Assembly (NCBI GenBank): GCA_041651415.1
Contig: JBAZJH010000003.1
Location: 15,309-79,308, forward strand
Origin: Minisyncoccota bacterium
GTDB taxonomy: Bacteria > Patescibacteriota > Minisyncoccia > UBA6257 > XYB1-36-10
Length of the DNA stretch: 64,000 bases
Direction of reading: 5' to 3'
Of this stretch, positions 2,975 through 57,933 are shown in pieces. Made by a program: the position numbers and the translations under genes. A model generated the notes under the pieces. The model worked only from the letters and a program-made list of their open reading frames with translations. It was not told where the DNA came from and did no database searches. How positions within the stretch are numbered: position 1 is the first letter of the stretch; every line of letters begins with the position of its first letter.

Positions 2975-3003
2975 CCGCTTTAAATTTAAGAGCGGTTTTT
3001 TTA
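2975..3003. terminator. bidirectional intrinsic terminator
   Basis: ACCGCTTTAAATTTAAGAGCGGT hairpin followed by T7 on plus strand and A-run on minus, between convergent genes. Confidence 0.5.
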
Positions 3004-4878: not shown

Positions 4879-5332
4879 AATTTTCAGAAAAAAACTTTTT
4901 AAGGAAAAAGAAGAAAAACCAGCCAATAATAAAATTCAGAACCGCTTCCAGAGCCACAATAAGAGGAGCGGAGAGCAAAAAAGAAGGGTTAATAAAAGAG
5001 TAAAAAATAAAAGTGGAAATGGCAAGAAAAAAAAGAAAACCGAAGGAAGACCCGAAAGAAATAAAATATCCAGAGCAATAAACAAGAAAGAGAAAAAGAG
5101 AGAAAGAAAAAAGCTCGCGAGAAAAAGACGGGAGCCAAGCCAAAGCCAGAAGAGAAAAGAAAGAAAGAAAAAAGAATTCAAGAAAACTTCTTTTTAAAGA
5201 AAGAAAAGAAATAAGAAAAATAAGAATGAGATTAGGCTTAGCGCCAAGGAAACCAAAAAGATTAAGATTCATCAAAAAAGCGGAAAGGAGAAGAAGCAGG
5301 AGAAAAAAAAGGTCAAGAAAAAAAGTTTTCAT
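4871..5332 (-). CDS. mreD: rod shape-determining protein MreD (putative)
   Basis: 153 aa polytopic hydrophobic protein positioned between mreC and PBP2 as in canonical operon. Confidence 0.5.
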   Translation of the reverse strand: MKTFFLDLFFLLLLLLSAFLMNLNLFGFLGAKPNLILIFLISFLSLKRSFLEFFFLSFFSLLALAWLPSFSRELFSFSLFLFLVYCSGYFISFGSSFGFLFFLAISTFIFYSFINPSFLLSAPLIVALEAVLNFIIGWFFFFFLKKFFSENYV

Positions 5333-6026: not shown

Positions 6027-7073
6027 TTAAAGAGTGATATCTTTGGGGCGAAGAGGATTATCCAAAATATAACTTAATTTTTCATAGTTTTCAACAACAG
6101 AACCAATGCCGCGAATGGCGCAAGTCAGAGGCTCATCAACAACATAAGTCGAGATGCTGGTTTCTTTTTCTATCAATTCTCCCATACCGCGAAGAAGAGC
6201 GCTGCCGCCGGAAAGATAAATCCCCTGCTTTAACATATCGCCGACAAGCTCAGGCGGAGCCGATTCGATTATTTCGCGAACGGATTCAACGATGATTTTA
6301 ATCGGCTTTAAGATGGCAGAACGAGCATGAGTGCCGCGGACAATCACTTCGCGCGGCAAGCCGGAAGAAATATCGCGGCCGCGAACATTCATTTCCAGTT
6401 TTTCCCCGCCGGCGATAACGCCGGCGATATTTATTTTAATGTCTTCAGCGGTAGCTTCGCCGATAATAAGCTTAAATTCGTCTTTGACAAATTTAGAAAT
6501 TTCCTGATTGAGTTCATCGCCGGCAATTTTGAGACTTCTTGATATAACAATTCCACCCATAGAAATAATGGCGATTTCAGTCAGGCCGCCACCGATATCG
6601 ACGATAAGGTTGGAAGTCGGGTCTTCAATAGGAAGATTGGCGCCAAGAGCGGCGGCAATAGGCTCTTCGATGAGATGGGCATGACCGCCGCCCGCGCCGA
6701 TAACGGCATCCTCCACGGATTTTCTCTCAACTTCAGTCAAGTTGCTTGGAATACCGATAACAACTTTTTGAAAATTAAGGAGATTGGAATTATTAACCTT
6801 GCGCAAAAGAATTTTAAGCATTTCTTGAGTCATTTCAAAATCGGAAATAACGCCGCTTTTTAAGGGATGAATCACATCAATATGGAGAGGAGTGCGGCCA
6901 AGCATTTTTTTGGCTTCTTCGCCAACCGAAAGAATCTGCCCGGATTTGGAGTTGACGGCGGCGATACAAGGTTCGTTTACAACAATTCCCCTGCCTTTCG
7001 CATAAACCAAGACATTCGAAGTGCCAAGGTCAATGCCGATATCTTTGCCAAAAAATTTAAAAGGATTAAACAA
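6027..7073 (-). CDS. mreB: rod shape-determining protein MreB (actin-like)
   Basis: IGIDLGTSNVLVY, DIGGG, actin-fold phosphate motifs; TTG start. Confidence 0.9.
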   Translation of the reverse strand: MFNPFKFFGKDIGIDLGTSNVLVYAKGRGIVVNEPCIAAVNSKSGQILSVGEEAKKMLGRTPLHIDVIHPLKSGVISDFEMTQEMLKILLRKVNNSNLLNFQKVVIGIPSNLTEVERKSVEDAVIGAGGGHAHLIEEPIAAALGANLPIEDPTSNLIVDIGGGLTEIAIISMGGIVISRSLKIAGDELNQEISKFVKDEFKLIIGEATAEDIKINIAGVIAGGEKLEMNVRGRDISSGLPREVIVRGTHARSAILKPIKIIVESVREIIESAPPELVGDMLKQGIYLSGGSALLRGMGELIEKETSISTYVVDEPLTCAIRGIGSVVENYEKLSYILDNPLRPKDITL

Positions 7074-11135: not shown

Positions 11136-12143
11136 TTATCTTTTATTCAGGAGAGTCCTCTTATAAATATCCAAGTGGCTCAAAATAATTCCAGTGCCTT
11201 TAGCCACGCAATAAAGCGGCTCTTCCGCTTGATAAGTCGGAACGCCCAAAATTCTTTCGAAAAATTCATCAAGATTACGCAGGAGAGCACCGCCGCCCGA
11301 GAGAATAATTCCTTTATCCATAATATCGGCAACGAGCTCCGGCGGAGTGTTGTTAAAAACGCTTTGAACAGCGGAAGCAATGTCGTTTAAAAAATGCCCG
11401 AGAGCTTCAGCCATTTCGTTCGAGGTGACGATAAGATCTTTCGGCAAGCCGGAAATAAGGTCAAGGCCGCGAAGATTAAATTCCAATTTGTCTTTCAAGG
11501 GAAGAGCCGAGCCGATGGAAATTTTTACGTTTTCCGCCATTTGTTCGCCGATAGACAATGAATGCTTCTTTTTAATGTAGTCAATTATGGATTGGTCAAA
11601 TTTATTGCCGGCAACGCGGAGAGATTCCCAAGCAACGATGCCGCCCAAAGAAACAACGGCGACTTCGGCGGTGCCGCCGCCGATATTAACAATCATATTA
11701 CCGCAGTGAGAATTAATAGGAATGCCGGCGCCGAGAGCCGCCAAAATCGGTTCGCGGACAATAAAGACTTCTTTGGCGCCAGCTTCTTTCGCCGCATTCA
11801 TAACTGCGCGGCGCTCAGTCGGAGTGATGCCAGCCGGAACGGAAATAACAACTTCGGGGCGGATAACGTTAAAACGGCCGACAGCTTTATTGATAAAATA
11901 AGAAAGCATCGCTTTCGTAATGTAATAGTCGGCAATGACGCCGTCTTTTAAGGGGCGGTAAGAAATAATGTCTTCGGGAGTGCGGCCAAGCATTTCTTTA
12001 GCTTCACGGCCGACAGCCAAAACTTTATTTTCCGGTTTAGTAAGCGCAACGATAGTCGGTTCATTGATAATAAATCCCCGTCCCGGAACGAAGACGATAG
12101 TATTAGCAGTGCCAAGGTCGATGCCTATTTTTTTAGTGAACAT
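11136..12143 (-). CDS. MreB/Mbl actin-like paralog
   Basis: IGIDLGTANTIVF, NIGGGTAEV motifs; second MreB homolog in window. Confidence 0.85.
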   Translation of the reverse strand: MFTKKIGIDLGTANTIVFVPGRGFIINEPTIVALTKPENKVLAVGREAKEMLGRTPEDIISYRPLKDGVIADYYITKAMLSYFINKAVGRFNVIRPEVVISVPAGITPTERRAVMNAAKEAGAKEVFIVREPILAALGAGIPINSHCGNMIVNIGGGTAEVAVVSLGGIVAWESLRVAGNKFDQSIIDYIKKKHSLSIGEQMAENVKISIGSALPLKDKLEFNLRGLDLISGLPKDLIVTSNEMAEALGHFLNDIASAVQSVFNNTPPELVADIMDKGIILSGGGALLRNLDEFFERILGVPTYQAEEPLYCVAKGTGIILSHLDIYKRTLLNKR

Positions 12144-19402: not shown

Positions 19403-20965
19403 TTATTTTTCAAAAGAGACGTTAATTTTTTCGGAATTTTCCGGAACTTTATCAACCCAGAAAGGCCAAAAAGAAATGCGAGCATTTTCCACACCGACAG
19501 TGGAGATTATTTCCGCTTTCAGTTCGGAAGAATTTTTTCCCTTTATGCCATTTTTAAATTCATCAATATTTAAATCCCTTTGAGCCAAGCCGGAAGCGGA
19601 CGGTAGGAAGGTCATTTTTCCCGTTTCAAAATCAATTTTTACATCTTTTGGATTGAGAGCATATTCGAGAAGATTCACCTTAAACCCAAGGTTTTCAGAG
19701 ATTTCTTTCACCAAAAATTCTTCCAGCTGTTTTTTGGAAAAAGCCAGAACTTTCTTTTCCACTTCTCCATAGACCGAAAACTCTCCTTTTTCATTTGTTT
19801 CTTCTTTTACTTCCGTTTTAACTATTTTAAAACTGTCGGAACCGTCAATGGCTGTAAAATCTTCAGGAATGTTTAAAGAAGAAGCTAAGCTGTCTTTCAG
19901 AGTTTGCTCAATTTTAGTAATAGCTTCCTTTTTATCAGCGTCTGTCGGAAAAGCGGCAACGCCAATAAAACCACCTGTGGCCGGTTCTTTTGATTCGCCG
20001 TAAAAACTTTCATATTTGGAAGAACCCTGAAATCCGGGAATGGAAAATCTGGAAATCGGACCGATATTATATTCTTCTCCCGCCTTGTCGGCAATTATTT
20101 CCGCTTCTATGGAAGAAGGAATAATTTTCCCTTGTTCGATTTTAGCGCCCGGGACTGTTATTTTATTTACCAAGCGAAAAAGTTTTCCATCCGGAGCAAG
20201 AAGACGAGTGGAAGCAACCAGAATTTGACTTTGTGAACTATAAGCGTTGTAAATAATAACTTTACCTTTAGCTTTTCTTTCTATTTTTTTACTGCCGGAA
20301 GCGGGAAAGTTAAGAGTAATGTTTTTTCTTTCGGTAAAAAGCTCTCCACCAATAACAGATTTTTCAAGGTCAATATCGGAAGAATCGGTTTCGACAGACA
20401 AAGAATTTTTGCTTTCAAACGGATATTCTTTAAGAGTGAAAGCGATAGTGGCTTTCGGAGAAACGTTTTCAACCCCAACCCAGATAAGAGCGATCAAAAC
20501 CAAAGCGCCAATAAAAAAATAAGCTTTCTTTTTGGAAAATTTGCCTGTTTTTCTATTGAAACCTTTTTCGGTAAAATCAACAGTCACATCACTATTTTCT
20601 TCCGGAATAGTTTCTTCTTCCAGACGAGCTTCTTCTTTTTTCAGGGAAGAAGGAGCGCTTCCAGCTAAAGAAATTTCAGGAGCGATGATGTCGGACATGC
20701 TTTTTCTTCTTCCGGAAAGAAACGGATTTAAAGAAGCAATGCCGGCGGCTTGAGCCAAAGCCAAAACCTCTTCATCAACGGATTCAATAACAAGATTTTT
20801 ATTGTCGGCATCCGCCTCTCTCTTAATCAAGTGAAAGTTGGAAACTGAGCCGGCAAGTTTGGAAGATTTAGGAAGAACTATTACTAAGTCCTTTTCTTTT
20901 TCCCCCAAGATATTTTCCACAACGAAGGCCGGGTCGTCGTTTTTGCCAATAAATATTTTTTTCAT
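19403..20965 (-). CDS. hypothetical bitopic membrane protein (150-aa cytoplasmic N-domain, one TM, large extracytoplasmic domain)
   Basis: TM segment YFFIGALVLIALIWVGV; last gene of a 4-gene minus-strand cluster starting with a sigma factor. Confidence 0.5.
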   Translation of the reverse strand: MKKIFIGKNDDPAFVVENILGEKEKDLVIVLPKSSKLAGSVSNFHLIKREADADNKNLVIESVDEEVLALAQAAGIASLNPFLSGRRKSMSDIIAPEISLAGSAPSSLKKEEARLEEETIPEENSDVTVDFTEKGFNRKTGKFSKKKAYFFIGALVLIALIWVGVENVSPKATIAFTLKEYPFESKNSLSVETDSSDIDLEKSVIGGELFTERKNITLNFPASGSKKIERKAKGKVIIYNAYSSQSQILVASTRLLAPDGKLFRLVNKITVPGAKIEQGKIIPSSIEAEIIADKAGEEYNIGPISRFSIPGFQGSSKYESFYGESKEPATGGFIGVAAFPTDADKKEAITKIEQTLKDSLASSLNIPEDFTAIDGSDSFKIVKTEVKEETNEKGEFSVYGEVEKKVLAFSKKQLEEFLVKEISENLGFKVNLLEYALNPKDVKIDFETGKMTFLPSASGLAQRDLNIDEFKNGIKGKNSSELKAEIISTVGVENARISFWPFWVDKVPENSEKINVSFEK

Positions 20966-21007
20966 GCTTTTTCCAATAAATAAATTATACCAGTTTTTTC
21001 AAAAAAA

Positions 21008-22270
21008 TTAAGGGATCAGCCATTTGGCGCGGCGACGGGCCATTTTATTAAGCTGGTCTTCATGGCTAGAGAAATAATATTCCAAGAATCCGGAAATAGA
21101 GGAAAAAACCGACTCAATTTCCAATCCGGAAACTTCAGAAGAAACAGAAAAACCCAGTTTTTCGATTATTTTTAAAATATCCGGCTTTTCCAGTCTAGGC
21201 TTGTTTTTTTTGTCAAAAATAAAATCAGGAATATTTTTTTCATCCAAAACAAATATCCGGCTTTCTTTCTCAAGCTTTCCTTTAGAATATATTTTTTTGA
21301 AAAAAACATCCCACTCTTCAAGAAGAGAATCCTTGACAAATTTTTCAATTTTACCGGAAGAACTTTTTCCGGAAACAAGATTAATTACTTTAAAAGAAGT
21401 TTCATTATCAAGATTGAGCTTTTTACCAAGGCAAGAAGAAAGAAAAGAAGAATCCCATTCCAAACAACTTTCTTCTTTTAAAACAGGCAAAGAAATATCT
21501 TCCCGGCTGAGATTTTTGTAAAAGCTTTTTAAAATAAGAACAGATTCAGGAAAAAATCTCAATAAGGAAAAAGAGTTTTCAAAATTGAAAGAACGAAGAA
21601 TCGTTTCGGAATCAATCAGGCCAAGTTCAGAGATAAATTCTATTTTGAATTTTCTTCCGAGAGCTTCTTCAAGAGCTCGATAATAATCGCGATTAACAAA
21701 GGTTTCTTCTATTAAAAACTCAACAGTCTTAGCTTTAAAACCGATAGGATTCAAAACTTTGTGGCCATTTACTTTAACGCTCAAATTTCTGATGCCAGAA
21801 AGAAGAATATCGGATTCGCCGATACCGAGAAGATTAACCGCCTGCGGACGAAAAAGATTAAGAAATTTCCAAACCGCTTGAGAAATAAGATTTTCGATTT
21901 CTCCTTCGTTTATTTCTTCTTTATGATTCATTCTATCCACCCGCACCCAAGCCGGAACAGTGTAAACAAAGGAAGAAGCGCCAACGATGATAATTTTGCT
22001 GCCAGAAGGAATATTTGTTTCTTTTAAAAAATTTTTAACCGATTCAATGCTTATTTTTTTTTCCAAGCCCTCACCGGATAAATCCGAGTTTTTAAGAAGA
22101 CGGCTTGAAGAAGAAATTATATTTATTTTGTTTTCGGAAACTTCGAAAAAAGAACCGCGCAAAAAAGAATTGCCTATTTCAAGACAAAAGAACCTTTCCG
22201 TATTTTCTCCGGATAATATTTTTTTAAAATTTAAAGCCATTAGTCGGAATGCCTTTAAATGATTATACAA
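21008..22270 (-). CDS. PilM/FtsA-like actin-fold protein (putative pilus assembly platform protein)
   Basis: N-terminal CLEIGNSFLRGSFFEV resembles PilM/FtsA phosphate-1 motif (GLDIGSSSIK..); family assignment tentative. Confidence 0.4.
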   Translation of the reverse strand: MYNHLKAFRLMALNFKKILSGENTERFFCLEIGNSFLRGSFFEVSENKINIISSSSRLLKNSDLSGEGLEKKISIESVKNFLKETNIPSGSKIIIVGASSFVYTVPAWVRVDRMNHKEEINEGEIENLISQAVWKFLNLFRPQAVNLLGIGESDILLSGIRNLSVKVNGHKVLNPIGFKAKTVEFLIEETFVNRDYYRALEEALGRKFKIEFISELGLIDSETILRSFNFENSFSLLRFFPESVLILKSFYKNLSREDISLPVLKEESCLEWDSSFLSSCLGKKLNLDNETSFKVINLVSGKSSSGKIEKFVKDSLLEEWDVFFKKIYSKGKLEKESRIFVLDEKNIPDFIFDKKNKPRLEKPDILKIIEKLGFSVSSEVSGLEIESVFSSISGFLEYYFSSHEDQLNKMARRRAKWLIP

Positions 22271-22291
22271 TAAGGAGAAGAGGCCGTAAAA

Positions 22292-23536
22292 TCAAGGGAG
22301 AAAAAAGCCCCGCAGAATATTTGCCGAAGCGTTTTTTTCAAGAAAAGAGAAATCAAAAAAAGAAACGAAAATTTTATTCCATAAAGCTTCATGCTCGTGG
22401 TAAGAAAAACTTTTTCCGCCGTTTTTTTCGACCAGCGACATAGAATTATCAAGAAGGTCAAAACTTAAAGGAGATTTTTCACCGGCGAAGAACTCCGCCA
22501 CCCAATCCAAATCATTCCAAAAAGAAAGAGATTTTTTAAGAGCCGGAAAAGAATCGCCGAGAGCGCCAAGTTTCAGATAAGCCTTGGAATACAGCAAGGA
22601 TTCCGTATTTAAATGAGGAAAGAAAAGACGCCAATCGCGGGGGTCATCTTTTTCAAGATAACGCTGAATGACAAGCCAAGCATTTTTCTCCTTTGGACGA
22701 TTTTTTAAGACATCGCCTCTTAAAAGAGAAGCGAGATCGGAAGAAAAACCGGATTCATTTTCCCCCAGTTTTTTGATAATGCCGGAATAAAAAGGAACTT
22801 CTTCAAGATAATGAAAAAGAAGCCCGACAGTTCTTAGAATTTCGCCCTCAAGATTAGCGGAAAGAGGAAGAAGAAAGATAACTCCAAGCTCCTTCAAATG
22901 AGTAAGATTGTGCCTTTTGTGCCCGACAAATTCAGTGGCAGAGCTTTTCCATTTTTCACTCAAGCAAATTATTTTTATTTTTCTCATTTCAAAATCCGAA
23001 GGAGAAAGAGAGAGATATTTTTTAAAAAAGACGCCATTTAACCAAGCAGAATCTTCAATAAAACGAAGAGAAGCAAAAAGCTCAAAAAGGTCTTCTTTAG
23101 AAAGAGCTTCTTCAATAGTTTTATAACCCAAAAAAGAAAGAACTTTAAGAGGAGGGTTAGAAATTAAAAGCTCTCTGGCTTTCTTTTCTTTTAGAAAAAA
23201 TCCGGAAGGCAGACCGCGAGTTTCTTTAACAAAATCAGCAACTTTGACGCGGCCAGAGGAAGAATTCAAGTTGGGGTAACCAAGAAGCAAAGAAAGAGAG
23301 TCATTCCCCTCTTCAGCTTTCTTAAGCAAAGCCATTTTTACCGAAAGGAAAGAAGAGTCGGGATTGAGATTAAGAAGATTAAGCGCTTCTTCAATCTTTT
23401 TTTTATGTTCAAGAGAGATAAGAGCAAAAACACCTTTTTTGCCGGTTTTTTCAGAAAGAAGGCTGTCAATTTCCGCAAGAAAGGACGGGGCAATGCCGAG
23501 AAGGCGGGAAATTTTTTCCAAACCAAAAGATTCCAT
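22292..23536 (-). CDS. hypothetical protein
   Basis: 414 aa, no recognisable motif; co-directional between sigma factor and PilM-like gene. Confidence 0.5.
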   Translation of the reverse strand: MESFGLEKISRLLGIAPSFLAEIDSLLSEKTGKKGVFALISLEHKKKIEEALNLLNLNPDSSFLSVKMALLKKAEEGNDSLSLLLGYPNLNSSSGRVKVADFVKETRGLPSGFFLKEKKARELLISNPPLKVLSFLGYKTIEEALSKEDLFELFASLRFIEDSAWLNGVFFKKYLSLSPSDFEMRKIKIICLSEKWKSSATEFVGHKRHNLTHLKELGVIFLLPLSANLEGEILRTVGLLFHYLEEVPFYSGIIKKLGENESGFSSDLASLLRGDVLKNRPKEKNAWLVIQRYLEKDDPRDWRLFFPHLNTESLLYSKAYLKLGALGDSFPALKKSLSFWNDLDWVAEFFAGEKSPLSFDLLDNSMSLVEKNGGKSFSYHEHEALWNKIFVSFFDFSFLEKNASANILRGFFLP

Positions 23537-27507: not shown

Positions 27508-27713
27508 GAAAGAAAGTTAAAAGTTAATAAAGTTTGTAAAGTTGAAAGTTTATAAAGTTCATAAAGTTAAAAGTAAAAATAACAAATTCCAAATAAATTA
27601 CAGCATTAAATTACTAATATTAAAAAGATAAACTCATTGTTTATTTTACAACAAATGGAGAAAATTTAGTATGTGAATAAAAAAATCCGACGCAAGGATA
27701 AGAAAAAAATATT

Positions 27714-29426
27714 TTATTCGCGGATGACGCGGAGAATTTCTTCTATAGTAGTCGAGCCAAGTTCAGCTTTTTTAATGCCATCTTCAAACATAGTCGACAT
27801 CCCCTCTTTTTTAGCTTGCGATTTTAAAGAATCAAGAGAAAAATTGCGGTCGGTAATAAGGTTCCGGATATTTTCGGAAACATTTAGAATTTCGAAAATG
27901 CCGATTCTGCCTTTATAGCCGGTGCCGCCGCAAACAGGGCAGCCAGCGCCTTTATAAAGAACTTTAGGAATAACAGGATTTTCAATAGAAGGGTCAATTT
28001 CTTTCAACTGACGCTTAATAGAAGATATAACATCCGCGCTCGGCTTAAAAGAAGCAATACAGGAAGAACAGATTTTTCTAACAAGACGCTGAGCAATAAT
28101 AATATTTAGAACAGCAGAAACCAAAAAGGGAGGGATTTTCATATCAAGAAGACGCGGAATAGCAGTAGTGGCATCGTTTGTATGTAAAGAAGAAAGAAGA
28201 AGATGGCCGGTCAAAGCCGCATTAACGGAAATATCAGCGGTTTCCTCATCGCGAATTTCACCAACCAAGATGATGTTCGGATCTTGACGAAGAATAGAAC
28301 GAAGACCGTTCGCAAAAGTGATACCAGCCTTTGCATTAATTTGAGTTTGATTGACATATTTTATTTCGTATTCAATAGGGTCTTCAACAGTAACAATGTT
28401 AACTTCGGGAGTATTCAACATATTCAAAATAGAATAAAGCGTAGTGGTTTTACCGGAGCCAGTCGGACCGCAAACAATAATCATACCAAAAGATTTTTTG
28501 ATATTTTCTTTAACAATTGGCACCAGACTTCCGGCAATACCAAGTTCTTCCAAAGACATCGGTTTTTGAGTGGAAGGCAAAAGACGTAAAACGGCTTTTT
28601 CGCCGTGAAAAGTCGGCATAATGGAAACTCTGATATCAATAACTTCTTTGCCAATCTTATAACGGAAACGACCATCTTGAGGTTTGGAATGCTCATCTAG
28701 TTTGAGACTCGCAAGAAGTTTGATTCTCGCCACCATCGGGAGAAGAACATCAACAGGAATTTGAACGATTTCCCGCAAGATACCATCAACGCGAAAACGA
28801 ATAAGGATGGAAGTTTCGAGAGGTTCAAAATGAATATCGGAAGAGCCGAGAGAAAAAGCGTAAGAAACAACATTATTAACAAGGGCGACAATCGGAACAT
28901 CGGCAGCAGCTTCTTCCAATCCTTTGGATTTACTACCTAAAGAGGCGCGAATGTTTTCTTCAATAAGCTCTTTAAAATCTTTAGTGAATTTTTGGCTGTA
29001 AACGGAGAAAATCTGATTTAAATCTTCAGAGGTGGCGAGAAACGGATTTAAAGAAGTTTTCAACAAACTGGAAAGAAATTCAATCGTCTCAAGATCGCTC
29101 GGATTTTCCATAGCCACATCAAAAGAGCCGTCTTCATTTTTTTTGAAAATTACCGCGCGACGAGATCTAGCCACATCTTCCGGTAAAAGACGGACTAGAG
29201 ACTCATCGAGAGAAGCAATATTAATGTCAGCATGATCAACGCCAAAATATCTGGAGAGAAGAGAAACAAAATATTTAGAAGAAATGATATTTCTCGAAAC
29301 AAGAATATCAACCACATCTTGGCTAAGACGAACAGCTTCCAAAAGAAGCGCGTCAAATTCTTCAGGAGTAATGAGCTTATCCTGAATTAAAAATTCTTTC
29401 AGTTTTTCGGCAGGGATTTGAGACAT
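27714..29426 (-). CDS. pilB: type IV pilus assembly ATPase PilB (GspE family)
   Basis: Walker A VCGPTGSGKTTTLYS, Asp/His boxes, C-terminal CPVCGGTGYKGR zinc tetracysteine. Confidence 0.9.
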   Translation of the reverse strand: MSQIPAEKLKEFLIQDKLITPEEFDALLLEAVRLSQDVVDILVSRNIISSKYFVSLLSRYFGVDHADINIASLDESLVRLLPEDVARSRRAVIFKKNEDGSFDVAMENPSDLETIEFLSSLLKTSLNPFLATSEDLNQIFSVYSQKFTKDFKELIEENIRASLGSKSKGLEEAAADVPIVALVNNVVSYAFSLGSSDIHFEPLETSILIRFRVDGILREIVQIPVDVLLPMVARIKLLASLKLDEHSKPQDGRFRYKIGKEVIDIRVSIMPTFHGEKAVLRLLPSTQKPMSLEELGIAGSLVPIVKENIKKSFGMIIVCGPTGSGKTTTLYSILNMLNTPEVNIVTVEDPIEYEIKYVNQTQINAKAGITFANGLRSILRQDPNIILVGEIRDEETADISVNAALTGHLLLSSLHTNDATTAIPRLLDMKIPPFLVSAVLNIIIAQRLVRKICSSCIASFKPSADVISSIKRQLKEIDPSIENPVIPKVLYKGAGCPVCGGTGYKGRIGIFEILNVSENIRNLITDRNFSLDSLKSQAKKEGMSTMFEDGIKKAELGSTTIEEILRVIRE

Positions 29427-29432
29427 AAGATT

Positions 29433-30047
29433 TTAGAAATTAAAAGAAGTAAATTGAAGCAATCTCCAAATTTCCATTCCTTCAAGCCAATTACTAATTA
29501 TTATAACAAATAAAGCGGATGGCACCCATAAAAAAAGAAAAGGAATTCTGGGAGGTTCTTTCAGCTCAGAGGAGGGACGCAACTTAAAAATCAAAAAGAA
29601 AAAAAGAGAAACAAAAAGCTGAGAAAAGAGCAGAAAAATTATAAAAAAGATAAGCCCGGGATAGCCGGAAAGAAGAAGAGAAGAGGCGGCAAGATAGGGT
29701 TCTTCATGATAAAACAGCCTCTCTCCTAATTTTTTATTTATTTTTTTCAAAAGAAAAATAATAAGAAAAGAGGAAAGAAGAGAAACAAGAAAAGGAGCAA
29801 AAAAACGAGCAAGAGAGAACTCGAAGAGATAGCTCCAATCGTTAAAAGGGGGAAGGAATTTTTCAGTGAGAGGATTATTTTTCCAAGTTTTATACTGGGC
29901 AAAGACAAGATAAACTCTCGAAAGAAAAAGAAAAAAAATCGAAAAGAAGAAAAAGAAACGAGACGCTTTGAAAGAAGCGTCTCGTTTAAAGATTTGGACC
30001 AAAAATAAAATCAGAAGAACAGAAAGAGAAAAGTAGAAAGAAACCAT
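29433..30047 (-). CDS. hypothetical polytopic membrane protein
   Basis: 204 aa Phe/Leu-rich with several TM segments; between pilB and pilin array; lacks prepilin peptidase motifs. Confidence 0.35.
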   Translation of the reverse strand: MVSFYFSLSVLLILFLVQIFKRDASFKASRFFFFFSIFFLFLSRVYLVFAQYKTWKNNPLTEKFLPPFNDWSYLFEFSLARFFAPFLVSLLSSFLIIFLLKKINKKLGERLFYHEEPYLAASSLLLSGYPGLIFFIIFLLFSQLFVSLFFFLIFKLRPSSELKEPPRIPFLFLWVPSALFVIIISNWLEGMEIWRLLQFTSFNF

Positions 30048-30051
30048 TTAG

Positions 30052-30639
30052 TTAAAGATCTAAGCCGGGGTCAGTGCCAAGCTCATAGATAGTGGCCGAA
30101 CTTCCACCGTCCTTATTATCATAATCTTCGGTTGTGAGATACTTAGTGCTTTCAAAAACAGTATCAAGCTCAAAAGTAGTATTAGTATTATCACAAGCGT
30201 AAGAGTAGAAATAAGTGGCGTCATTCGTCGGGTCAATAGGAAGAACAGACAAGGGGGAACCGCCGGGGATATTAGAAAAAACCACCGGGATCCAACCAGT
30301 ACCATCAATAGTCCTATCCGCATCAGTCGTTGAGAGTCGAGCGGCGGCATGACGACCGCCACAGTTAGCGGTAATATCCGAAGCATTAGTAAAGCATTTA
30401 TTAGAACAACTTGATATAGCGGCGTCCAAGTCAGGAGAAGAAACATTCGTGACGTAAAGGCTTAAAGCCTCGTTTAAGGTGGAGAGGTCAGAAATTCTAG
30501 TAGAATCTCTAGCTTGTTTTAAAAGTTCAGCAGGATTCAAAACCAGAGTAGCAGCGGTGGTTAATACCGCCAGGACACCAATAACAATAAGAAGTTCCAT
30601 CAAAGTGAAACCTTTGCTGTTTTTAAGAATTGAAGCCAT
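30052..30639 (-). CDS. type IV pilin-like protein (paralog A)
   Basis: Class III signal KG/FTLMELLIVIGVLAVL with Glu+5; conserved N-terminal helix and C-terminal TYFYSYACDNT...TTEDYD...GTDPGLD block; variable centre. Confidence 0.8.
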   Translation of the reverse strand: MASILKNSKGFTLMELLIVIGVLAVLTTAATLVLNPAELLKQARDSTRISDLSTLNEALSLYVTNVSSPDLDAAISSCSNKCFTNASDITANCGGRHAAARLSTTDADRTIDGTGWIPVVFSNIPGGSPLSVLPIDPTNDATYFYSYACDNTNTTFELDTVFESTKYLTTEDYDNKDGGSSATIYELGTDPGLDL

Positions 30640-30656
30640 AATAATTTTTTAAAAAA

Positions 30657-31253
30657 TTATATATCCAAACCTGGGTCAGTGCCAAGCTCATAAGTAGTGG
30701 CTGAACTTCCTCCGTCTTCCGCATCATAATCCTCGGTTGTGAGATACTTAGTACTTTCAAAGACAGTGTCGAGTTCGAAAGTTTTGTTAGTGTTATCACA
30801 GGCGTAAGAGTAAAAATAGGTGGATGTGTTAGTCGGGTCAATAGGAAGAACGGCAAGAGGAGCGCCGCCGGGAATATCGGCAAAATCGACTGGAACCCAA
30901 CCATTAGCATCAACTTCGCGAGTGGCGTCGATGGTAGTGGTTTTTCCGGTATGCCGGCTATCACAATTAGCAGCCACACCTGTTGTAGCCGTATAACAAA
31001 GAGTGGAACAAGAATCTGTGCCACCATCAAGGTCGGGAGCACTGACATTCGTGACGTAAAGGCTTAAAGCCTCGTTTAAGGTGGAGAGGTCAGAAATTCT
31101 AGTAGAATCTCTAGCTTGTTTTAAAAGTTCAGCAGGATTCAAAACCAGAGTAGCAGCGGTGGTTAATACCGCCAGGACACCAATAACAATAAGAAGTTCC
31201 ATCAAAGTGAAACCTTTGCTTTCTTTTATCTTGCTAAATAAATTCTTAAACAT
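30657..31253 (-). CDS. type IV pilin-like protein (paralog B)
   Basis: Same leader/helix (nt-identical for about 210 nt with paralog C); distinct central region. Confidence 0.8.
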   Translation of the reverse strand: MFKNLFSKIKESKGFTLMELLIVIGVLAVLTTAATLVLNPAELLKQARDSTRISDLSTLNEALSLYVTNVSAPDLDGGTDSCSTLCYTATTGVAANCDSRHTGKTTTIDATREVDANGWVPVDFADIPGGAPLAVLPIDPTNTSTYFYSYACDNTNKTFELDTVFESTKYLTTEDYDAEDGGSSATTYELGTDPGLDI

Positions 31254-31298
31254 AGTAAATGAATAATTTTATGATTTTTGTAAATTGAATTTTAGAAG

Positions 31299-31889
31299 TT
31301 AGATATCTAACCCCGGCTCGGAACCCACTTCATAAGTAGTAGCTGAACTTCCTCCGTCTTCCGCATCATAATCCTCGGTCGTGAGATATTTAGTGCTTTC
31401 AAAAACAGTGTCAAGTTCGTAAGTTTTGTTAGTGTTATCACAGGCGTAAGAATAAAAATATGAAGTCGTATTGGAAGGATCGATAGGAAGAACAGCAAGA
31501 GGAGCGCCGCCGGGAATGTCAGTGAAATCGACCGGAATCCAGCCATTACCATCCACTTCGCGAGTAGTGTCAACTAAAGAAGCTCCAACATGCCTTCCGC
31601 CACAGTTAGCGGCAATGCCAGCAATATGGACAAAACAACTAACAGAACAATCTTGCGCGCCATCCATATCAGGAGAAGAAACATTCGTGACGTAAAGGCT
31701 TAAAGCCTCGTTTAAGGTGGAGAGGTCAGAAATTCTAGTAGAATCTCTAGCTTGTTTTAAAAGTTCAGCAGGATTCAAAACCAGAGTAGCAGCGGTGGTT
31801 AATACCGCCAGGACACCAATAACAATAAGAAGTTCCATCAAAGTGAAACCTTTGCTTTCTTTTATCTTGCTAAATAAATTCTTAAACAT
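31299..31889 (-). CDS. type IV pilin-like protein (paralog C)
   Basis: Same leader/helix; distinct central region; C-terminal block shared with B. Confidence 0.8.
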   Translation of the reverse strand: MFKNLFSKIKESKGFTLMELLIVIGVLAVLTTAATLVLNPAELLKQARDSTRISDLSTLNEALSLYVTNVSSPDMDGAQDCSVSCFVHIAGIAANCGGRHVGASLVDTTREVDGNGWIPVDFTDIPGGAPLAVLPIDPSNTTSYFYSYACDNTNKTYELDTVFESTKYLTTEDYDAEDGGSSATTYEVGSEPGLDI

Positions 31890-32029
31890 GAGATATTTTA
31901 TACTTACGACTTTTTTATAAACTAACGTTTTTATTTTCTACTCTTTCTATTTTTCTAAACTTTTTCAAATTATGGATATATTTTTATTTTAAAGCATGGT
32001 AAACATAATGTTTATTGTTTTTTTATAAA

Positions 32030-32629
32030 TCAGATATCCAAATCAGGGTCAGTGCCGATTTCGTAAGTGGTGGCGGAATTGCCGCCGTCAGTGCCGTCAT
32101 AATCCTCGGTTGTGAGATACTTAGTACTTTCAAAGACAGTGTCGAGTTCGAAAGTTTTGTTGGTGTTGTCGCAAGCGTAAGAGTAAAAATAAGTGGCATC
32201 ATTCGTCGGGTCAATAGGAAGAACAGATAAGGGGGAACCGCCGGGGATATCGGCAAAATCAATCGGAATCCAGCCGGTGCTATCAACTTCGCGAGTGGAA
32301 TCTTCGGTAGTGGTTTTAGTGGAATGGCGGCCGCCGCAGTTAGCGGTAACACTTGAGGCATTAACATAACAAAGAGTGGAGCAAGAGGTTGTGCCGCCGT
32401 CCAAATCCGGGGAATCAACACCGGTAACATAAACGCCGATAGCGTTTTTTAAGCTAGCCAAATCAGAAACGCGGGTAGCGTCTCTTGATTGCCTTAAGAT
32501 TTCAATCGGATTTAAAACAAGAACAGTAGCAGTGGCAAGAACCGCCAGGACACCAATAACAATAAGAAGTTCAAGCAGAGTAAATCCTTTTTGATTGCTT
32601 TTATTCATTTTTTCTTTATTTAATTTCAT
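32030..32629 (-). CDS. type IV pilin-like protein (paralog D, more divergent)
   Basis: QKGFTLLELLIVIGVLAVLA leader; C-terminal block GGSPLSVLPIDPTNDATYFYSYACDNT identical to paralog A. Confidence 0.8.
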   Translation of the reverse strand: MKLNKEKMNKSNQKGFTLLELLIVIGVLAVLATATVLVLNPIEILRQSRDATRVSDLASLKNAIGVYVTGVDSPDLDGGTTSCSTLCYVNASSVTANCGGRHSTKTTTEDSTREVDSTGWIPIDFADIPGGSPLSVLPIDPTNDATYFYSYACDNTNKTFELDTVFESTKYLTTEDYDGTDGGNSATTYEIGTDPDLDI

Positions 32630-39043: not shown

Positions 39044-39595
39044 TTATTCAAGACGATAAATGATTTTGCCGCGAGCAAAAAGGCGAAGCTTGTCTTTTTC
39101 TCCCAAGATTGTATTGACGTCAAAATTATCAAACTGAACGAGAAAACGGCTCTTCTCCACCTTTTTCAGAAATCTGATAATGTTTGTGAAAGAGCCGTCA
39201 ACGGAAACAGAAACGCCAGCTTTGCCAAGAAGCCCATTTTTTTCTTCAGTTTCTCCGGTAAAAGAAGAAGAAACTTCAACATTGGTGTCTTTGGCAATGG
39301 AAGCAAAATCTTCTTGAAGCTTCAGGAGGTCGTCTTTAGAAGCAAGTTTTTCTTTAAGCTTAATTTCAAGAGGAGCGGCTTTTTCGGATTCTTTTTTCAG
39401 AAGAAAATGATTCTCTAGAATGTTGGCTTTACCTTGAATTTCTTGATTAACTCTTTTTATTTTTTCAATGGTTGCGGTAATGCTTTCCTTAATGTAGCTA
39501 TTTAAAAAAAGCATAATAAAAATACCGAGAAGAGAAAGAGCGGCTCCCAAGCCGAAAAGAAGCTTAAAGTTTTTTAAGATTTTTTTGAAATCCAT
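39044..39595 (-). CDS. bitopic membrane protein with coiled coil (PilN/PilO-like topology), hypothetical
   Basis: N-terminal TM then coiled-coil then beta region; topology resembles pilus alignment proteins but no motif evidence. Confidence 0.35.
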   Translation of the reverse strand: MDFKKILKNFKLLFGLGAALSLLGIFIMLFLNSYIKESITATIEKIKRVNQEIQGKANILENHFLLKKESEKAAPLEIKLKEKLASKDDLLKLQEDFASIAKDTNVEVSSSFTGETEEKNGLLGKAGVSVSVDGSFTNIIRFLKKVEKSRFLVQFDNFDVNTILGEKDKLRLFARGKIIYRLE

Positions 39596-39659
39596 AGTCT
39601 CCCGTTTATTTTAACATTTTGAGAAAAAAGAAAAAACAGCTTGTGGTACAATTTCAAGA

Positions 39660-40691
39660 ATGGAGGAAGCGGCATTTTACAACGCAATCAATATCGTCTT
39701 AGACGGACAATACAAAAAAATCGCCAGACTGAAAGAAAAATACGGAAGCTTTGAAAAAGCGTATTTTTCAGGAGAAGGAGAAATAGAAAAAGCGGAAGTG
39801 GAAAAAGAGTGGGAGAAATTAAAGGCAGCGGGAATAAAATTGATTTTAGCGGAGGCGGAAGAATATCCGAAAGCCTTGAAAGAAATTCCCTGGCCGCCGA
39901 TGGGAATTTATTTTAAAGGAAAGCTGCCGGAAAAAAATGAAAGGATAATAGCGATGGTCGGGACAAGAAAAGCGACTTTCGAGGGAAAAAGATTCGCCAA
40001 GGAAACGGCGGAGAAGCTGGCAAAAATCGGAATCGGAATAATCAGCGGGCTGGCTTTCGGCATAGACACGGAAAGCCACGAAGGAACCTTGAGAAGCGGA
40101 GGAAAAACTTACGCGGTTTTAGCCAACGGACTTTCTTCAATATATCCGAAGCAAAATGAAAATTTGGCAAAGAAAATTTTGGAAGCGGGGGGCGGATTAA
40201 TTTCAGAGTATCCGATGGACGCCACGCCCTATAAAGACAGATTCATTGAAAGAAACCGAATCGTGAGCGGAATAGCAGAAGGAGTTTTGATTATAGAAGC
40301 GCCGGAGAGGTCAGGGTCGCTTGCAACGGCAAGATTCGCCATTGAACAGAATAAAGACGTTTATGTGGCGCCGGGGCCGTTTTATCATGCCAATTACAAA
40401 GGTTCGGCAAAACTTCTTCGGGAAGGAGCAAGAATAGTGACGACAGCCGAAGATTTGTTGGAAGACCTCGGAATAACAGAAGAGGAGGAAAAAGAAGAAG
40501 CGGCGGAAAAAAATATATTTTCAGAAAAACAAAGAACGATTTTTGAAGCTTTAAAAATGGAAGCCCGGCCGTGTTCAATTGACAAAATAATTCAAATAAG
40601 TAAGATTAACCCCCAAGAGTTAAACCAGGAATTAGCGGAAATGACGCTTATCGGTATAATAAAGGAAGAAGGCGGACTTTACCGCTTATAA
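39660..40691 (+). CDS. dprA: DNA processing protein DprA (Smf)
   Basis: Rossmann-like DprA core (GTRKATFEGKRFA...ISGLAFGIDTESH), C-terminal WH domain; TGGTACAAT extended -10 ends 11 nt before ATG (near-leaderless). Confidence 0.85.
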   Translation: MEEAAFYNAINIVLDGQYKKIARLKEKYGSFEKAYFSGEGEIEKAEVEKEWEKLKAAGIKLILAEAEEYPKALKEIPWPPMGIYFKGKLPEKNERIIAMVGTRKATFEGKRFAKETAEKLAKIGIGIISGLAFGIDTESHEGTLRSGGKTYAVLANGLSSIYPKQNENLAKKILEAGGGLISEYPMDATPYKDRFIERNRIVSGIAEGVLIIEAPERSGSLATARFAIEQNKDVYVAPGPFYHANYKGSAKLLREGARIVTTAEDLLEDLGITEEEEKEEAAEKNIFSEKQRTIFEALKMEARPCSIDKIIQISKINPQELNQELAEMTLIGIIKEEGGLYRL

Positions 40692-56096: not shown

Positions 56097-56891
56097 TTAC
56101 AAATATCTCCTTATGTTAGCGATATGTTCTTCCAAAGTTTTGCTGAAAATGGTTTTTTTTGTCTTTGGATCACTTAGATAATACCAGTAAGGCGAGCTTT
56201 TCGCCTCCAAAACCGACATTATCGCCTCTTCCCCAGGATTTGAGATGGGAGCAGGCGGCAAGCCCTTGTATTTATAAGTGTTATAAGGAGAGTCGACTTC
56301 CTTGTCTTGTTTTGTTAAAGGATAACAGCTTTTCAAACCAGAGTCAACTTCGGCTTCAGTTTTCGCCAAGTTGTTAATCGAGTAAGCGTGGCTTTTAACA
56401 TAGCATAAGGAAGCATCGATTTGCAAGGGCATGCCGGTTTCCAGTCTTTTTAAAAGAATTCCGGCCACTATTTTTCTTTCTTCAAAGCGAGGCACTTCTC
56501 TTTCAATCAAGGAAGCCAGAATAAGATTGCGGTCATAATTGGCGGAATCTTTTGAAAGAAGCGGGTCGGCTTTTTTATAAAAATTTTCCAAAATCTTTTC
56601 AACAACAACGACAGCGCTGGAATCTTTAAAAAAACGGTAAGTGTCCGGAAAAAGACGCCCTTCAAGAGGACGTCCTAAAGCAAGAAGACTTTCGCCATTT
56701 TTAAAAATTCCCAAATCTTTCAAGTTGTCGTCTATTTCACGAACAGTCTGACCTTCATAAATAACCACTGTTATTTCTCTCGGTTCTTTTTTATTTCTAA
56801 GTAAAAAAAATTCAAAAATAAAAAAAACGCCGAGAACGATTAGAGCGGCTGTAAAAACCGGTTTTCCAAGCTGTTTAAGAACGTAAAGCAA
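56097..56891 (-). CDS. mltG: YceG/MltG-like endolytic murein transglycosylase
   Basis: N-terminal TM, C-terminal YNTYKYKGLPPAPISNPG YceG signature. Confidence 0.75.
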   Translation of the reverse strand: MLYVLKQLGKPVFTAALIVLGVFFIFEFFLLRNKKEPREITVVIYEGQTVREIDDNLKDLGIFKNGESLLALGRPLEGRLFPDTYRFFKDSSAVVVVEKILENFYKKADPLLSKDSANYDRNLILASLIEREVPRFEERKIVAGILLKRLETGMPLQIDASLCYVKSHAYSINNLAKTEAEVDSGLKSCYPLTKQDKEVDSPYNTYKYKGLPPAPISNPGEEAIMSVLEAKSSPYWYYLSDPKTKKTIFSKTLEEHIANIRRYL

Positions 56892-57933
56892 TTGAATTTA
56901 TTATAGCCACCATAATAAAACTCGTCAATAAGTTGGAACCTCCGTAGCTTACAAAAGGAAAAGGCAGACCAATAACAGGAGTGAGGCCGAGAGCGGAACC
57001 GGCATTTAAGATAAAATGAATGCTGAAAATTATAACCGCACCAAGACAGACAAACCGGTCAAAATTGTCGGAAGCAAAATAAACGCTGATGCCGATTATT
57101 TCATAAATAAGAAAAGCGAAAGATAAAATAAGAAGAAGACCGCCAAGAAGTCCCCACTCTTCAATAGCGCCCGCAAGAATAAAATCCGTTTGGGCTTCCG
57201 GCAAAAATCCGAGCTGAATTTGAGTCCCCTGTCCAAAACCTTTGCCAAAAAAACCGCCAGAGCCGATGGCAATTTTTGATTGAATAACATTATAGTTTAT
57301 GCCAAGCGGGTCCCGCTCCGGATAAAAAACTCCGGCGATTCTTTCTTTTTGATAAGGAGCTAAAAAATAAGACCAAGCCAGGATAAAGCCAGCAATCAAA
57401 ATAAAAGAACCGACGAGAAGATGCTTAAAACGAAGCCCGCTAATTAAGAGAAAACCAAGCCACATACCGAAAAGAACAATAGTGGAGCCAAGGTCCGGCT
57501 GTTTTAAAATAAGAAGCGCGGGAAGAAAAAAAATAAAAAAAGGAATCAGAATATTTTTCAAATGAGCGAGACCGGTATAGCGTTTAGCAAAAAAATAAGC
57601 GAAAAGAAGAAGAAGAGAAATTTTTACAAGTTCCGCCGGTTGAAAATTAAATAAGCCGAAATGAATCCAGCCCTTAATGCCTCTTATCGGAGAAGAAAAA
57701 AGGGCGGCGACAAGAAGCGCGAGAGAAAAAAAATAAAAAAAGACCAAAAGTTCCCGATTTTTTATAATTCCCCGCAAATCAAAAAACCAGAAGAAAACAA
57801 CAATCAAAGTTCCGAGAATCACCCAAAATAACTGAGACCAAAATAAGGAAAAATTGATGCTTGAAATCACAAGCAAACCTAAGAAAGAAAGAAAATAAAC
57901 AGGAAAAAGAAGCTTAAAAGAAGAAGAAAACAT
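56875..57933 (-). CDS. SEDS-family peptidoglycan glycosyltransferase (FtsW/RodA)
   Basis: 10-TM SEDS architecture, conserved PELVK.. and C-terminal SYGGSNLL-like motif. Confidence 0.8.
   Translation of the reverse strand: MFSSSFKLLFPVYFLSFLGLLVISSINFSLFWSQLFWVILGTLIVVFFWFFDLRGIIKNRELLVFFYFFSLALLVAALFSSPIRGIKGWIHFGLFNFQPAELVKISLLLLFAYFFAKRYTGLAHLKNILIPFFIFFLPALLILKQPDLGSTIVLFGMWLGFLLISGLRFKHLLVGSFILIAGFILAWSYFLAPYQKERIAGVFYPERDPLGINYNVIQSKIAIGSGGFFGKGFGQGTQIQLGFLPEAQTDFILAGAIEEWGLLGGLLLILSFAFLIYEIIGISVYFASDNFDRFVCLGAVIIFSIHFILNAGSALGLTPVIGLPFPFVSYGGSNLLTSFIMVAIINSIALRS

Follow-up and report, generated by a model that had tools for sequence, protein, structure and literature searches.

Four tandem type IV pilin genes with a homogenised core-helix segment in a Minisyncoccota genome

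The pilin array and its products

The stretch of DNA described here (the window) comprises 64,000 nucleotides (nt) of a contig from a metagenome-assembled genome (MAG) of a Minisyncoccota bacterium. According to the list of open reading frames (ORFs), its minus strand carries four complete tandem type IV prepilin ORFs between positions 30052 and 32629, called D, C, B and A in the direction of transcription. The array represents a putative multi-major-pilin locus whose core helix evolves in concert; pili are important in this phylum, though little studied. The public records of A, B and C (consecutive accessions MFA5173351-53) are labelled merely "type II secretion system protein". The window has a GC content of 40%, so that the "low-GC genome" of a preliminary description made from the sequence is only moderately so.

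32030-32629, minus strand: pilin D ("type 1"), 199 amino acids (aa) from the longest-ORF start; PF07963 match of 34.9 bits and TIGR02532 match
31299-31889, minus strand: pilin C ("type 2"), 196 aa; MFA5173353.1; ortholog in the sister species STF2_126 at L007 2569-3159
30657-31253, minus strand: pilin B ("type 2"), 198 aa; 100% identical to P0014 (MFA5173352.1); closest centre in L004 copy 3
30052-30639, minus strand: pilin A ("type 2"), 195 aa; MFA5173351.1; sister-species ortholog at L029 546-1145, also in L010 from base 2

All four ORFs match the PF07963 N_methyl family with 27-35 bits (gathering score 21.2) and TIGR02532 with 26-30 bits (cut-off 16.3), and an ATG, a leader and a cleavage site are present in every copy. 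The leaders finish in ...SKG or ...QKG and the mature proteins open with FTLMELL or FTLLELL, with Glu at position +5. The leader of pilin A, MASILKNSKG, differs from that of B and C. Pilin D probably starts at an internal ATG at 32608 (MNKSNQKGFTL...) and not at the longest-ORF start at 32629 (MKLNKEKMNKSNQKG...), because its orthologs P0001 (93% identity), in L007 and in L004 begin at the equivalent of M8; its product would then have 192 aa and lie 44 nt after RluA. The genes follow one another in the order MurF, Ddl, RluA, D, C, B, A, a 204-aa membrane protein, a PilB/GspE ATPase, two transketolase halves and PfkB. The spacers measure 23-44 nt from RluA to D, 140 nt from D to C, 45 nt from C to B and 17 nt from B to A. 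Four complete tandem pilin genes, each with its own upstream region, had been proposed; the genes are indeed complete, and the separate upstream regions exist only in part.

The predicted structure of pilin B (AlphaFold2, 69 homologues, mean predicted local distance difference test score 89.6) has the lollipop shape of a long hydrophobic N-terminal helix, α1 (residues 17-69, 53 residues), carrying a globular head with few regular elements. A Foldseek comparison of this model with the PDB returned nothing significant, and in a profile search of PDB sequences the match was restricted to α1. Judged by the model, the proteins are type IV pilins with a predicted head unlike any solved one. Across the family, variability peaks in the stretch that separates α1 from the conserved YFYSYACDNT strand (residues 71-129): the mean column entropy is 1.62 in this region, 0.91 in α1 and 1.15 in the C-terminal third, and 38 of the 59 central columns vary among the four paralogs. 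By general pilin architecture, the variable region would be exposed on the surface of the filament. The centres are not "unrelated", as they had been called, since the four paralogs align there at 56-70% nt identity, have four cysteines in common and retain the conserved ANC..RH and GW.P motifs.

The combined content of Gly, Ala, Ser and Thr (GAST) is 0.35-0.38 in the pilins, 0.18-0.29 in most of the cytoplasmic neighbours and 0.33 in ribosomal protein S11, which, by the criterion applied to Saccharibacteria (PMC11623550), is consistent with structural pilins made in abundance. A search with pilin D as the query found 1,349 proteins at E ≤ 1e-5; the listed matches were named Paceibacterota, Harrisonbacteria, Wolfebacteria or Parcubacteria group (Candidate Phyla Radiation (CPR)/Paceibacteria), or an unclassified "bacterium".

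Concerted evolution of the core-helix segment

A, B and C are identical across 176 nt (30443-30618, 31045-31220 and 31681-31856), slightly more than the block of about 170 nt (30443-30613 and its equivalents) noticed at first. B and C share 209 nt (31045-31253 and 31681-31889), up to exactly the A of the ATG, in agreement with the roughly 210 nt through the start codon that had been reported. The identity of A and C extends over 188 nt, from 31669 to 31856 in C and from 30431 in A. The block codes for the end of the leader (three residues), the cleavage site and the entire α1 helix (SKG/FTLMELL...LYVTN, the slash marking the cleavage), and A, B and C do not differ in mature residues 1-55. Pilin D lies outside the identical block, at 71-72% nt identity and a dS of about 0.8 (dS and dN are synonymous and nonsynonymous substitutions per site). 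The nucleotide-identical 5' cassette is a property of A, B and C and not of D. The shared tracts are the following.

30443-30618, minus strand: block copy in A, encoding SKG/FTLMELLIVIGVLAVLTTAATLVLNPAELLKQARDSTRISDLSTLNEALSLYVTN
31045-31253, minus strand: block copy in B, three-way part 31045-31220
31669-31889, minus strand: block copy in C, three-way part 31681-31856
30184-30270 (A) and 32162-32248 (D), minus strand: A/D tract of 87 nt (IPGGSPLSVLPIDPTNDATYFYSYACDNT; IPGG...DNT), 7 differences between the two copies
30724-30788 (B) and 32097-32161 (D), minus strand: B/D exact run of 65 nt (TFELDTVFESTKYLTTEDYD region), permutation over codons 159-177, p = 2e-4

Substitution rates, estimated by the Nei-Gojobori method, differ sharply along the genes.

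5' block among A, B and C: dS 0-0.02, dN 0-0.015
5' block, A, B and C versus D: dS 0.76-0.83, dN 0.27
Centre: dS 1.1-2.6, dN 0.24-0.46
C-terminal third: dS 0.8-2.0, dN 0.04-0.13

A GENECONV-style permutation of the polymorphic sites gave p<1e-4 for each of the pairs A/B, A/C and B/C. The identity of the block is well above the background of other paralog pairs, as had been supposed: in about 15 tandem pilin pairs of related genomes the third-position identity in the equivalent block is 0.28-0.75 and the longest exact runs are 11-35 nt, with one of 81 nt, which makes the block in the window a clear outlier.

Comparison with a sister species separates the histories of the different parts of the genes. 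This species is represented in GTDB by the MAG STF2_126, which is colinear with the window at about 83% nt identity and has its locus split between two contigs, L007 and L010. An independent 1,245-nt contig of the Joint Genome Institute (JGI), L029, bridges the two with 100% and 99% identity. The array of the sister species (L007/L029/L010) consists of D, an ortholog of C, an ortholog of A and the membrane protein gene; an ortholog of B is absent. Genes of the window are denoted below by W_ and those of the sister species by S_; L4_3 is copy 3 of the related locus L004.

The centres of the window genes pair with genes of another species. Their nt identity is 0.77 for W_A and S_A, 0.80 for W_C and S_C and 0.77 for W_B and L4_3, compared with 0.56-0.62 among the window paralogs themselves (0.62 for W_C with both W_A and W_B). 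Neighbour-joining trees of the centre support the groups (W_A,S_A) and (W_C,S_C) with bootstrap values of 100 and 99.8; W_B and L4_3 pair by distance only, with a clade support of 34%. The 5' block groups by genome instead, with bootstrap values of 95.6 for (W_A,W_B,W_C) and 100 for (S_A,S_C). Its identity is 0.98-1.00 within the window, likewise 0.98-1.00 within the sister species and 0.80-0.86 between the two, where the proportion of synonymous differences (pS) is 0.55-0.74. The two type-2 genes of the sister species are identical for 229 nt from the ATG.

Because the window centres pair with genes of another species, A, B and C are old paralogs, whose head centres predate the split from the sister species. 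Within the genome, gene conversion, a non-reciprocal form of homologous recombination, has made their first 180-210 nt or so uniform, and the sister species underwent the same process independently. Paralogs that are closest to each other in one segment and follow the ortholog tree in another have undergone concerted evolution by gene conversion. The preliminary description was thus right in ascribing the identity of the block to conversion and not to old duplication: the block has a dS of 0-0.02 and groups by genome.

The mosaic pattern reported for the 3' part of the genes is also real at the nucleotide level, since shorter conversion tracts connect conserved segments of A and D, and likewise of B and D. 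In the A/D tract, W_A and W_D each differ from their own ortholog at 17 positions, and the permutation test found 10 polymorphic sites in a row that agree, at codons 137-146 (p = 8e-4). In a 60-nt comparison of the B/D region (TFELD...EDYD), W_B and W_D show one difference to each other and nine to their orthologs. The 3' tracts cluster by genome, as does the 5' block. A test of the pairwise homoplasy index (PHI) type with 38 quartet-informative sites gave p = 0.28; with four sequences it has low power, because the main signal (A, B and C versus D) is not quartet-informative.

Other relatives have the same arrangement of genes. At the syntenic loci L001-L006 and L030-L033 the order is RluA, pilins, membrane protein and PilB, and since such relatives regularly hold two or three pilin genes at this place, the array is not unusual for its lineage, as had been thought. 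Two conserved pilin types occur: the D-like type, which is single-copy and adjoins RluA throughout, and the A/B/C-like type, with one to three copies. Orthologous centres of the type-2 genes have a dN/dS of 0.13-0.16 and those of D one of 0.03-0.12, and D as a whole is under the strongest purifying selection of the four (dN/dS 0.01-0.03 versus the sister species). The centre evolves faster than the rest of the protein, yet it is under overall purifying selection.

A recent horizontal acquisition of the B centre from an L004-like lineage was considered and rejected, the identity of 0.77 being no higher than the 0.83-0.86 of the flanking genes. Two more distant genomes, recorded as "uncultured Candidatus Saccharibacteria", contain tandem pilin pairs (L024 5995-7253 and L025 3286-4547) that are identical over 461-491 nt from codon 2 and diverge only near the 3' end, a tract geometry unlike that of the window.

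Interpretation of the array and its alternatives

The locus most probably contains four full-length paralogs of the major-pilin type, modified by sub-genic gene conversion, that serve the machinery of the adjacent PilB as interchangeable subunits of one machine. The α1 helix would form the core of the filament and be the substrate of the peptidase and of the assembly platform, so that an identical α1 would make the subunits interchangeable. That one machine processes and polymerises them is suggested by the identity of mature residues 1-55 in A, B and C. Conversion would start where purifying selection on the filament-core helix keeps the paralogs alike enough for RecA-type strand exchange, and would end, or be selected against, at the diverged centres or where distinct heads are favoured. 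The outcome would be a constant core with distinct surfaces. The products may be a mosaic heteropolymeric pilus, or alternative pili that differ in surface chemistry and would attach to partner cells or to surfaces.

The choice between these two products involves the transcription of the array, for which three candidate signals were found, all of them consensus matches only.

31890-32029, minus strand: AT-rich 140-nt spacer from D to C, with a promoter-like site
30656-30685, minus strand: σ70-like match TTGGCA-18-TATAAT, 11/12, the best in the region
29956-29987, minus strand: terminator-like hairpin with a 13-bp stem, 6 GC pairs and a T-run, 65 nt past the stop codon of A

The equivalent spacer of L007 also has a promoter-like site (10/12), and the 140-nt spacer is likely to be the start of a C-B-A transcription unit. 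The 11/12 match is composed of the conserved last codons of B (...ELGTDPGLDI) and its stop codon and lies directly upstream of the ATG of A; it may be a coding-embedded promoter or a chance match. The hairpin falls within the first 30 or so codons of the membrane protein ORF, the N-terminus of which is itself conserved, and it recurs in the sister species (L010 507-538 and the tail of L029) with one altered loop position and an unchanged stem. A possible role is to attenuate transcription from the highly expressed pilins into the downstream machinery genes. No terminator-like site was found in the spacers between C, B and A, and these three genes probably form one transcription unit. Co-transcription would support co-expression and a mosaic heteropolymeric pilus, with alternative use of the subunits also possible. 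A heteropolymeric pilus is favoured over alternative pili, because the gaps between C, B and A are only 45 and 17 nt, with no terminator between them and one after A.

Several points weigh against this interpretation. The promoter and terminator assignments are consensus matches, and both the status of major pilin and the co-assembly are deduced from the genes. Of the remaining pilus components, PilC, PilD and PilT were not found among the annotated ORFs of the window; only a PilO-like protein and DprA were identified there. The type-2 paralogs of L004 are not homogenised (84% identity in the N-terminal block, pS 0.55); therefore conversion appears to be episodic and no obligatory feature of the family. 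Bubble-popping during metagenome assembly could have turned near-identity into exact identity. Finally, the order of B and C across the 209-nt repeat depends on the assembler, the synteny of L007, L029 and L010 supporting the order D-C...A.

The closest analogue is the multi-major-pilin locus of Streptococcus sanguinis. As set out in the passages of PMC10628169 and PMC11121087 that bear on it, two or three full-length genes for major pilins, depending on the strain, lie side by side in this locus (pilE1/pilE2; pilA1/pilA2/pilA3), PilA1 and PilA3 share the same aa 1-53 and differ mainly in the globular head, and the subunits co-polymerise stochastically into a single heteropolymeric filament. 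In both organisms the envelope has no outer membrane. A, B and C likewise are adjacent full-length pilins with identical α1 helices and divergent heads, matching the streptococcal pattern of at least two such major pilins. The two systems have no detectable homology past α1, however, and the four genes of the window fall into two ancient types. Co-assembly has been demonstrated in S. sanguinis, whereas here it is deduced from the genes, and the nucleotide-level concerted evolution found here is not mentioned in those same passages of PMC10628169 and PMC11121087.

Tandem archaellin and pilin loci of archaea are similar in having several paralogs with a strictly conserved N-terminal core and divergent outer domains. 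Thus, PilA1-6 of Haloferax volcanii share an identical hydrophobic N-terminal domain. These systems belong to another domain of life, however, with different machinery and a different class of signal peptidase. The archaellum of Methanocaldococcus villosus is heteropolymeric, made of ArlB1 and ArlB2, as cited in a passage of PMC10628169.

In their pattern of divergence, the pilin genes resemble duplicates that evolve in concert, the paralogs within a genome being closer than the orthologs between genomes. Bacterial examples of concerted evolution by gene conversion are tufA/tufB and the rRNA operons. Unlike these, the pilin genes are converted in sub-genic tracts only, which results in a mosaic with opposite phylogenies inside one gene.

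A bolder extension is that the constant 5' cassette and the conserved 3' segments are kept as homology arms for swapping or importing pilin heads, the array being an evolvable determinant of host or partner range with a mosaic pilus. We regard this as rather unlikely. The heads would be exchanged between members of the array, or derived from DNA imported through the same pilus, DprA being encoded about 7 kb away. If this were true, the surface composition of the pilus would be tuned by the heads present, with the head as a CPR-specific fold without a solved counterpart. Diversification of the host or partner range as such is a possibility.

Programmed variation of the pilE/pilS type, in which one expressed pilin is rewritten from donors and the centres are shuffled at high frequency in the population, is very improbable. 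In Neisseria there is one expressed gene, accompanied by promoterless 5'-truncated silent cassettes and by a G-quadruplex (G4)-forming element with its small RNA, and variable segments are transferred at high frequency. The window resembles this system in its multiple linked pilin sequences and in non-reciprocal recombination guided by conserved segments; the tandem related pilins with shared flanking homology, the clear conversion tracts, the presence of DprA and the plausibility of RecA-dependent recombination would all suit it. However, every copy in the window is complete, and blastn and tblastn searches with the four genes found neither further full or partial pilin copies nor silent cassettes in the remaining ~61 kb. 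No G4 motif (G3+N1-7 x4) occurs on either strand between 27000 and 34500, and no phase-variable repeats or homopolymer tracts were found in or upstream of the genes. The segments that are converted are the conserved ones, and the centres form stable lineages of orthologs, on which purifying selection acts (dN/dS 0.13-0.16). With no 5'-truncated cassettes, no G4 and orthologous centres, the antigenic or phase variation suggested in the preliminary description is unsupported, and the locus is not supported as an antigen-switching system. It also differs from the Q/I invertase switching of Moraxella: the four genes are in direct orientation without an invertible segment, inverted repeats being limited to short AT-rich chance occurrences, and Pfam and NCBIfam scans of the ORFs in the neighbourhood found no site-specific recombinase. 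Metagenome contigs scanned for an exact 50-mer from the block, and for a degenerate pattern back-translated from the N-terminal block, gave 0 matches.

There is also very little likelihood that the array is an assembly artefact, with strain variants strung together or with repeats collapsed and consensus-polished in a short-read metagenome. The contig does belong to a MAG, and related assemblies break in the block: L007 ends and L010 starts inside it, and L011 ends at it. Each junction in the window is unique, however: the three spacers differ from one another, and A has a leader of its own. The order D-C...A-membrane protein-PilB recurs in sister-species assemblies from two independent projects, and the 1,245-nt contig spans one whole copy and both of its neighbouring junctions with the same identical block. 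Moreover, what assemblers do with repeats is to collapse them, and tandem copies that diverge in their centres are not invented in this way. The contig ends within the pilin 5' block (L007 3217-3316, L010 1-2 and L011 6613-6837) fit repeat-induced breaks, and pilin copy number is probably under-counted in short-read MAGs of CPR bacteria.

A very recent triplication of one type-2 gene, after which diversifying selection would have changed the centre and the 3' half rapidly and left the 5' block undiverged, is extremely unlikely. The variation in type-2 copy number from one to three among relatives and the identity of B and C right up to the ATG would agree with it. It is refuted by the segment phylogenies and by the saturated synonymous sites of the centre: the paralogs have a pS of 0.47-0.71 in the centre and C-terminus, near saturation (dS 0.8-2.6), which positive selection on amino acids is unable to produce. 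The centres of A and C have sister-species orthologs (bootstrap 100 and 99.8), that of B being nearest to L004 copy 3 by distance only, and the dN/dS of 0.13-0.16 between orthologs likewise contradicts diversifying selection.

A nucleotide-level function (a regulatory RNA, an mRNA structure or a translational signal) that holds the block constant, although the identity of B and C halts exactly at the start codon and the block spans the translation-initiation region, can be given next to no credence and is excluded as a constraint because the block diverges freely at synonymous sites between the sister species (14-20% of positions, pS 0.55-0.74), and the L004 paralogs are just 84% identical in it and no Rfam RNA matches the region.

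Type IV pili are the best-supported means of host attachment and movement in CPR bacteria (Patescibacteria), as known from work on Saccharibacteria (PMC9894109, PMC11623550), which are also naturally competent (PMC10187176). Cultivated Saccharibacteria have two separate pilus systems with one major pilin each (PMC11623550), and an unrelated chaperone-usher-like pilus, "Pam", occurs in CPR bacteria (bioRxiv 10.64898/2026.03.03.709456). In the literature searched, no description was found of pilin arrays or of gene conversion in Parcubacteria or Paceibacteria. The present locus suggests that a Paceibacterota lineage may keep up to four interchangeable subunits, with one filament-core sequence and several distinct surfaces, and that homologous recombination actively maintains this arrangement of pilins in a small genome. 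To our knowledge, almost nothing is known about the pili of Paceibacteria. The repeats explain why assemblies of related MAGs break at the pilin locus. The array follows a known pattern, with no new mechanism, and is a concrete candidate for heteropolymeric pili outside Streptococcus.

Neighbouring genes

The genes next to the array and the more distant ones with a possible relation to the pilus are listed here.

27714-29426, minus strand: PilB/GspE-family assembly ATPase with an N-terminal MshEN domain; PF00437 E = 1e-122, PF05157
29433-30047, minus strand: polytopic membrane protein, 204 aa, family unassigned; syntenic in L001-L006, L010 and L030
39044-39595, minus strand: PilO/T2SS-M-like protein (T2SS, type II secretion system), 183 aa, back to back with DprA
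within 39044-40691, plus strand: DprA, 343 aa, about 7 kb from the pilin array

The ATPase, two genes from the pilins, matches TIGR02538 with 509 bits, which is under the equivalog cut-off. The membrane protein is 188-204 aa long in relatives, where it is invariantly sited between the last pilin gene and pilB, and its family has invariant LPP, FY.EE and LWV..A.FVI motifs. No Pfam, NCBIfam or PDB sequence match was found for it, even with a profile of a seven-member alignment. It could be a pilus-associated, undescribed lineage-specific component. Its assignment as a divergent prepilin peptidase was rejected by eye, as the GxGD-type motif is absent. The pair formed by the PilO-like protein and DprA (39044-40691) hints at a capacity for DNA uptake tied to the pilus.

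The rest of the window encodes, besides this pair, two MreB paralogs, ribosomal proteins and the 23S and 5S rRNA. The two MreB/Mbl paralogs lie less than 5 kb apart on the minus strand (6027-7073 and 11136-12143), with PBP2 at 3001-4926 in the same region. Together with a RodA/FtsW-family protein at 56875-57933, they are a notable set for a CPR cell of very small size. A 25-nt tandem repeat (AAAGTTAAAAGTTAATAAAGTTCAT, 2.5 copies, 86% matches) is found at 27513-27574, in the spacer that separates pilB from the gene for the N-terminal half of transketolase. Three consecutive large ORFs of 520, 420 and 414 aa are found at 19403-23536 on the minus strand, downstream of a sigma-factor-like gene. 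Pfam and NCBIfam gave no assignment for them except a weak sub-threshold match to the GlxA β-barrel, and the 414-aa ORF is syntenic in L002 and L003.

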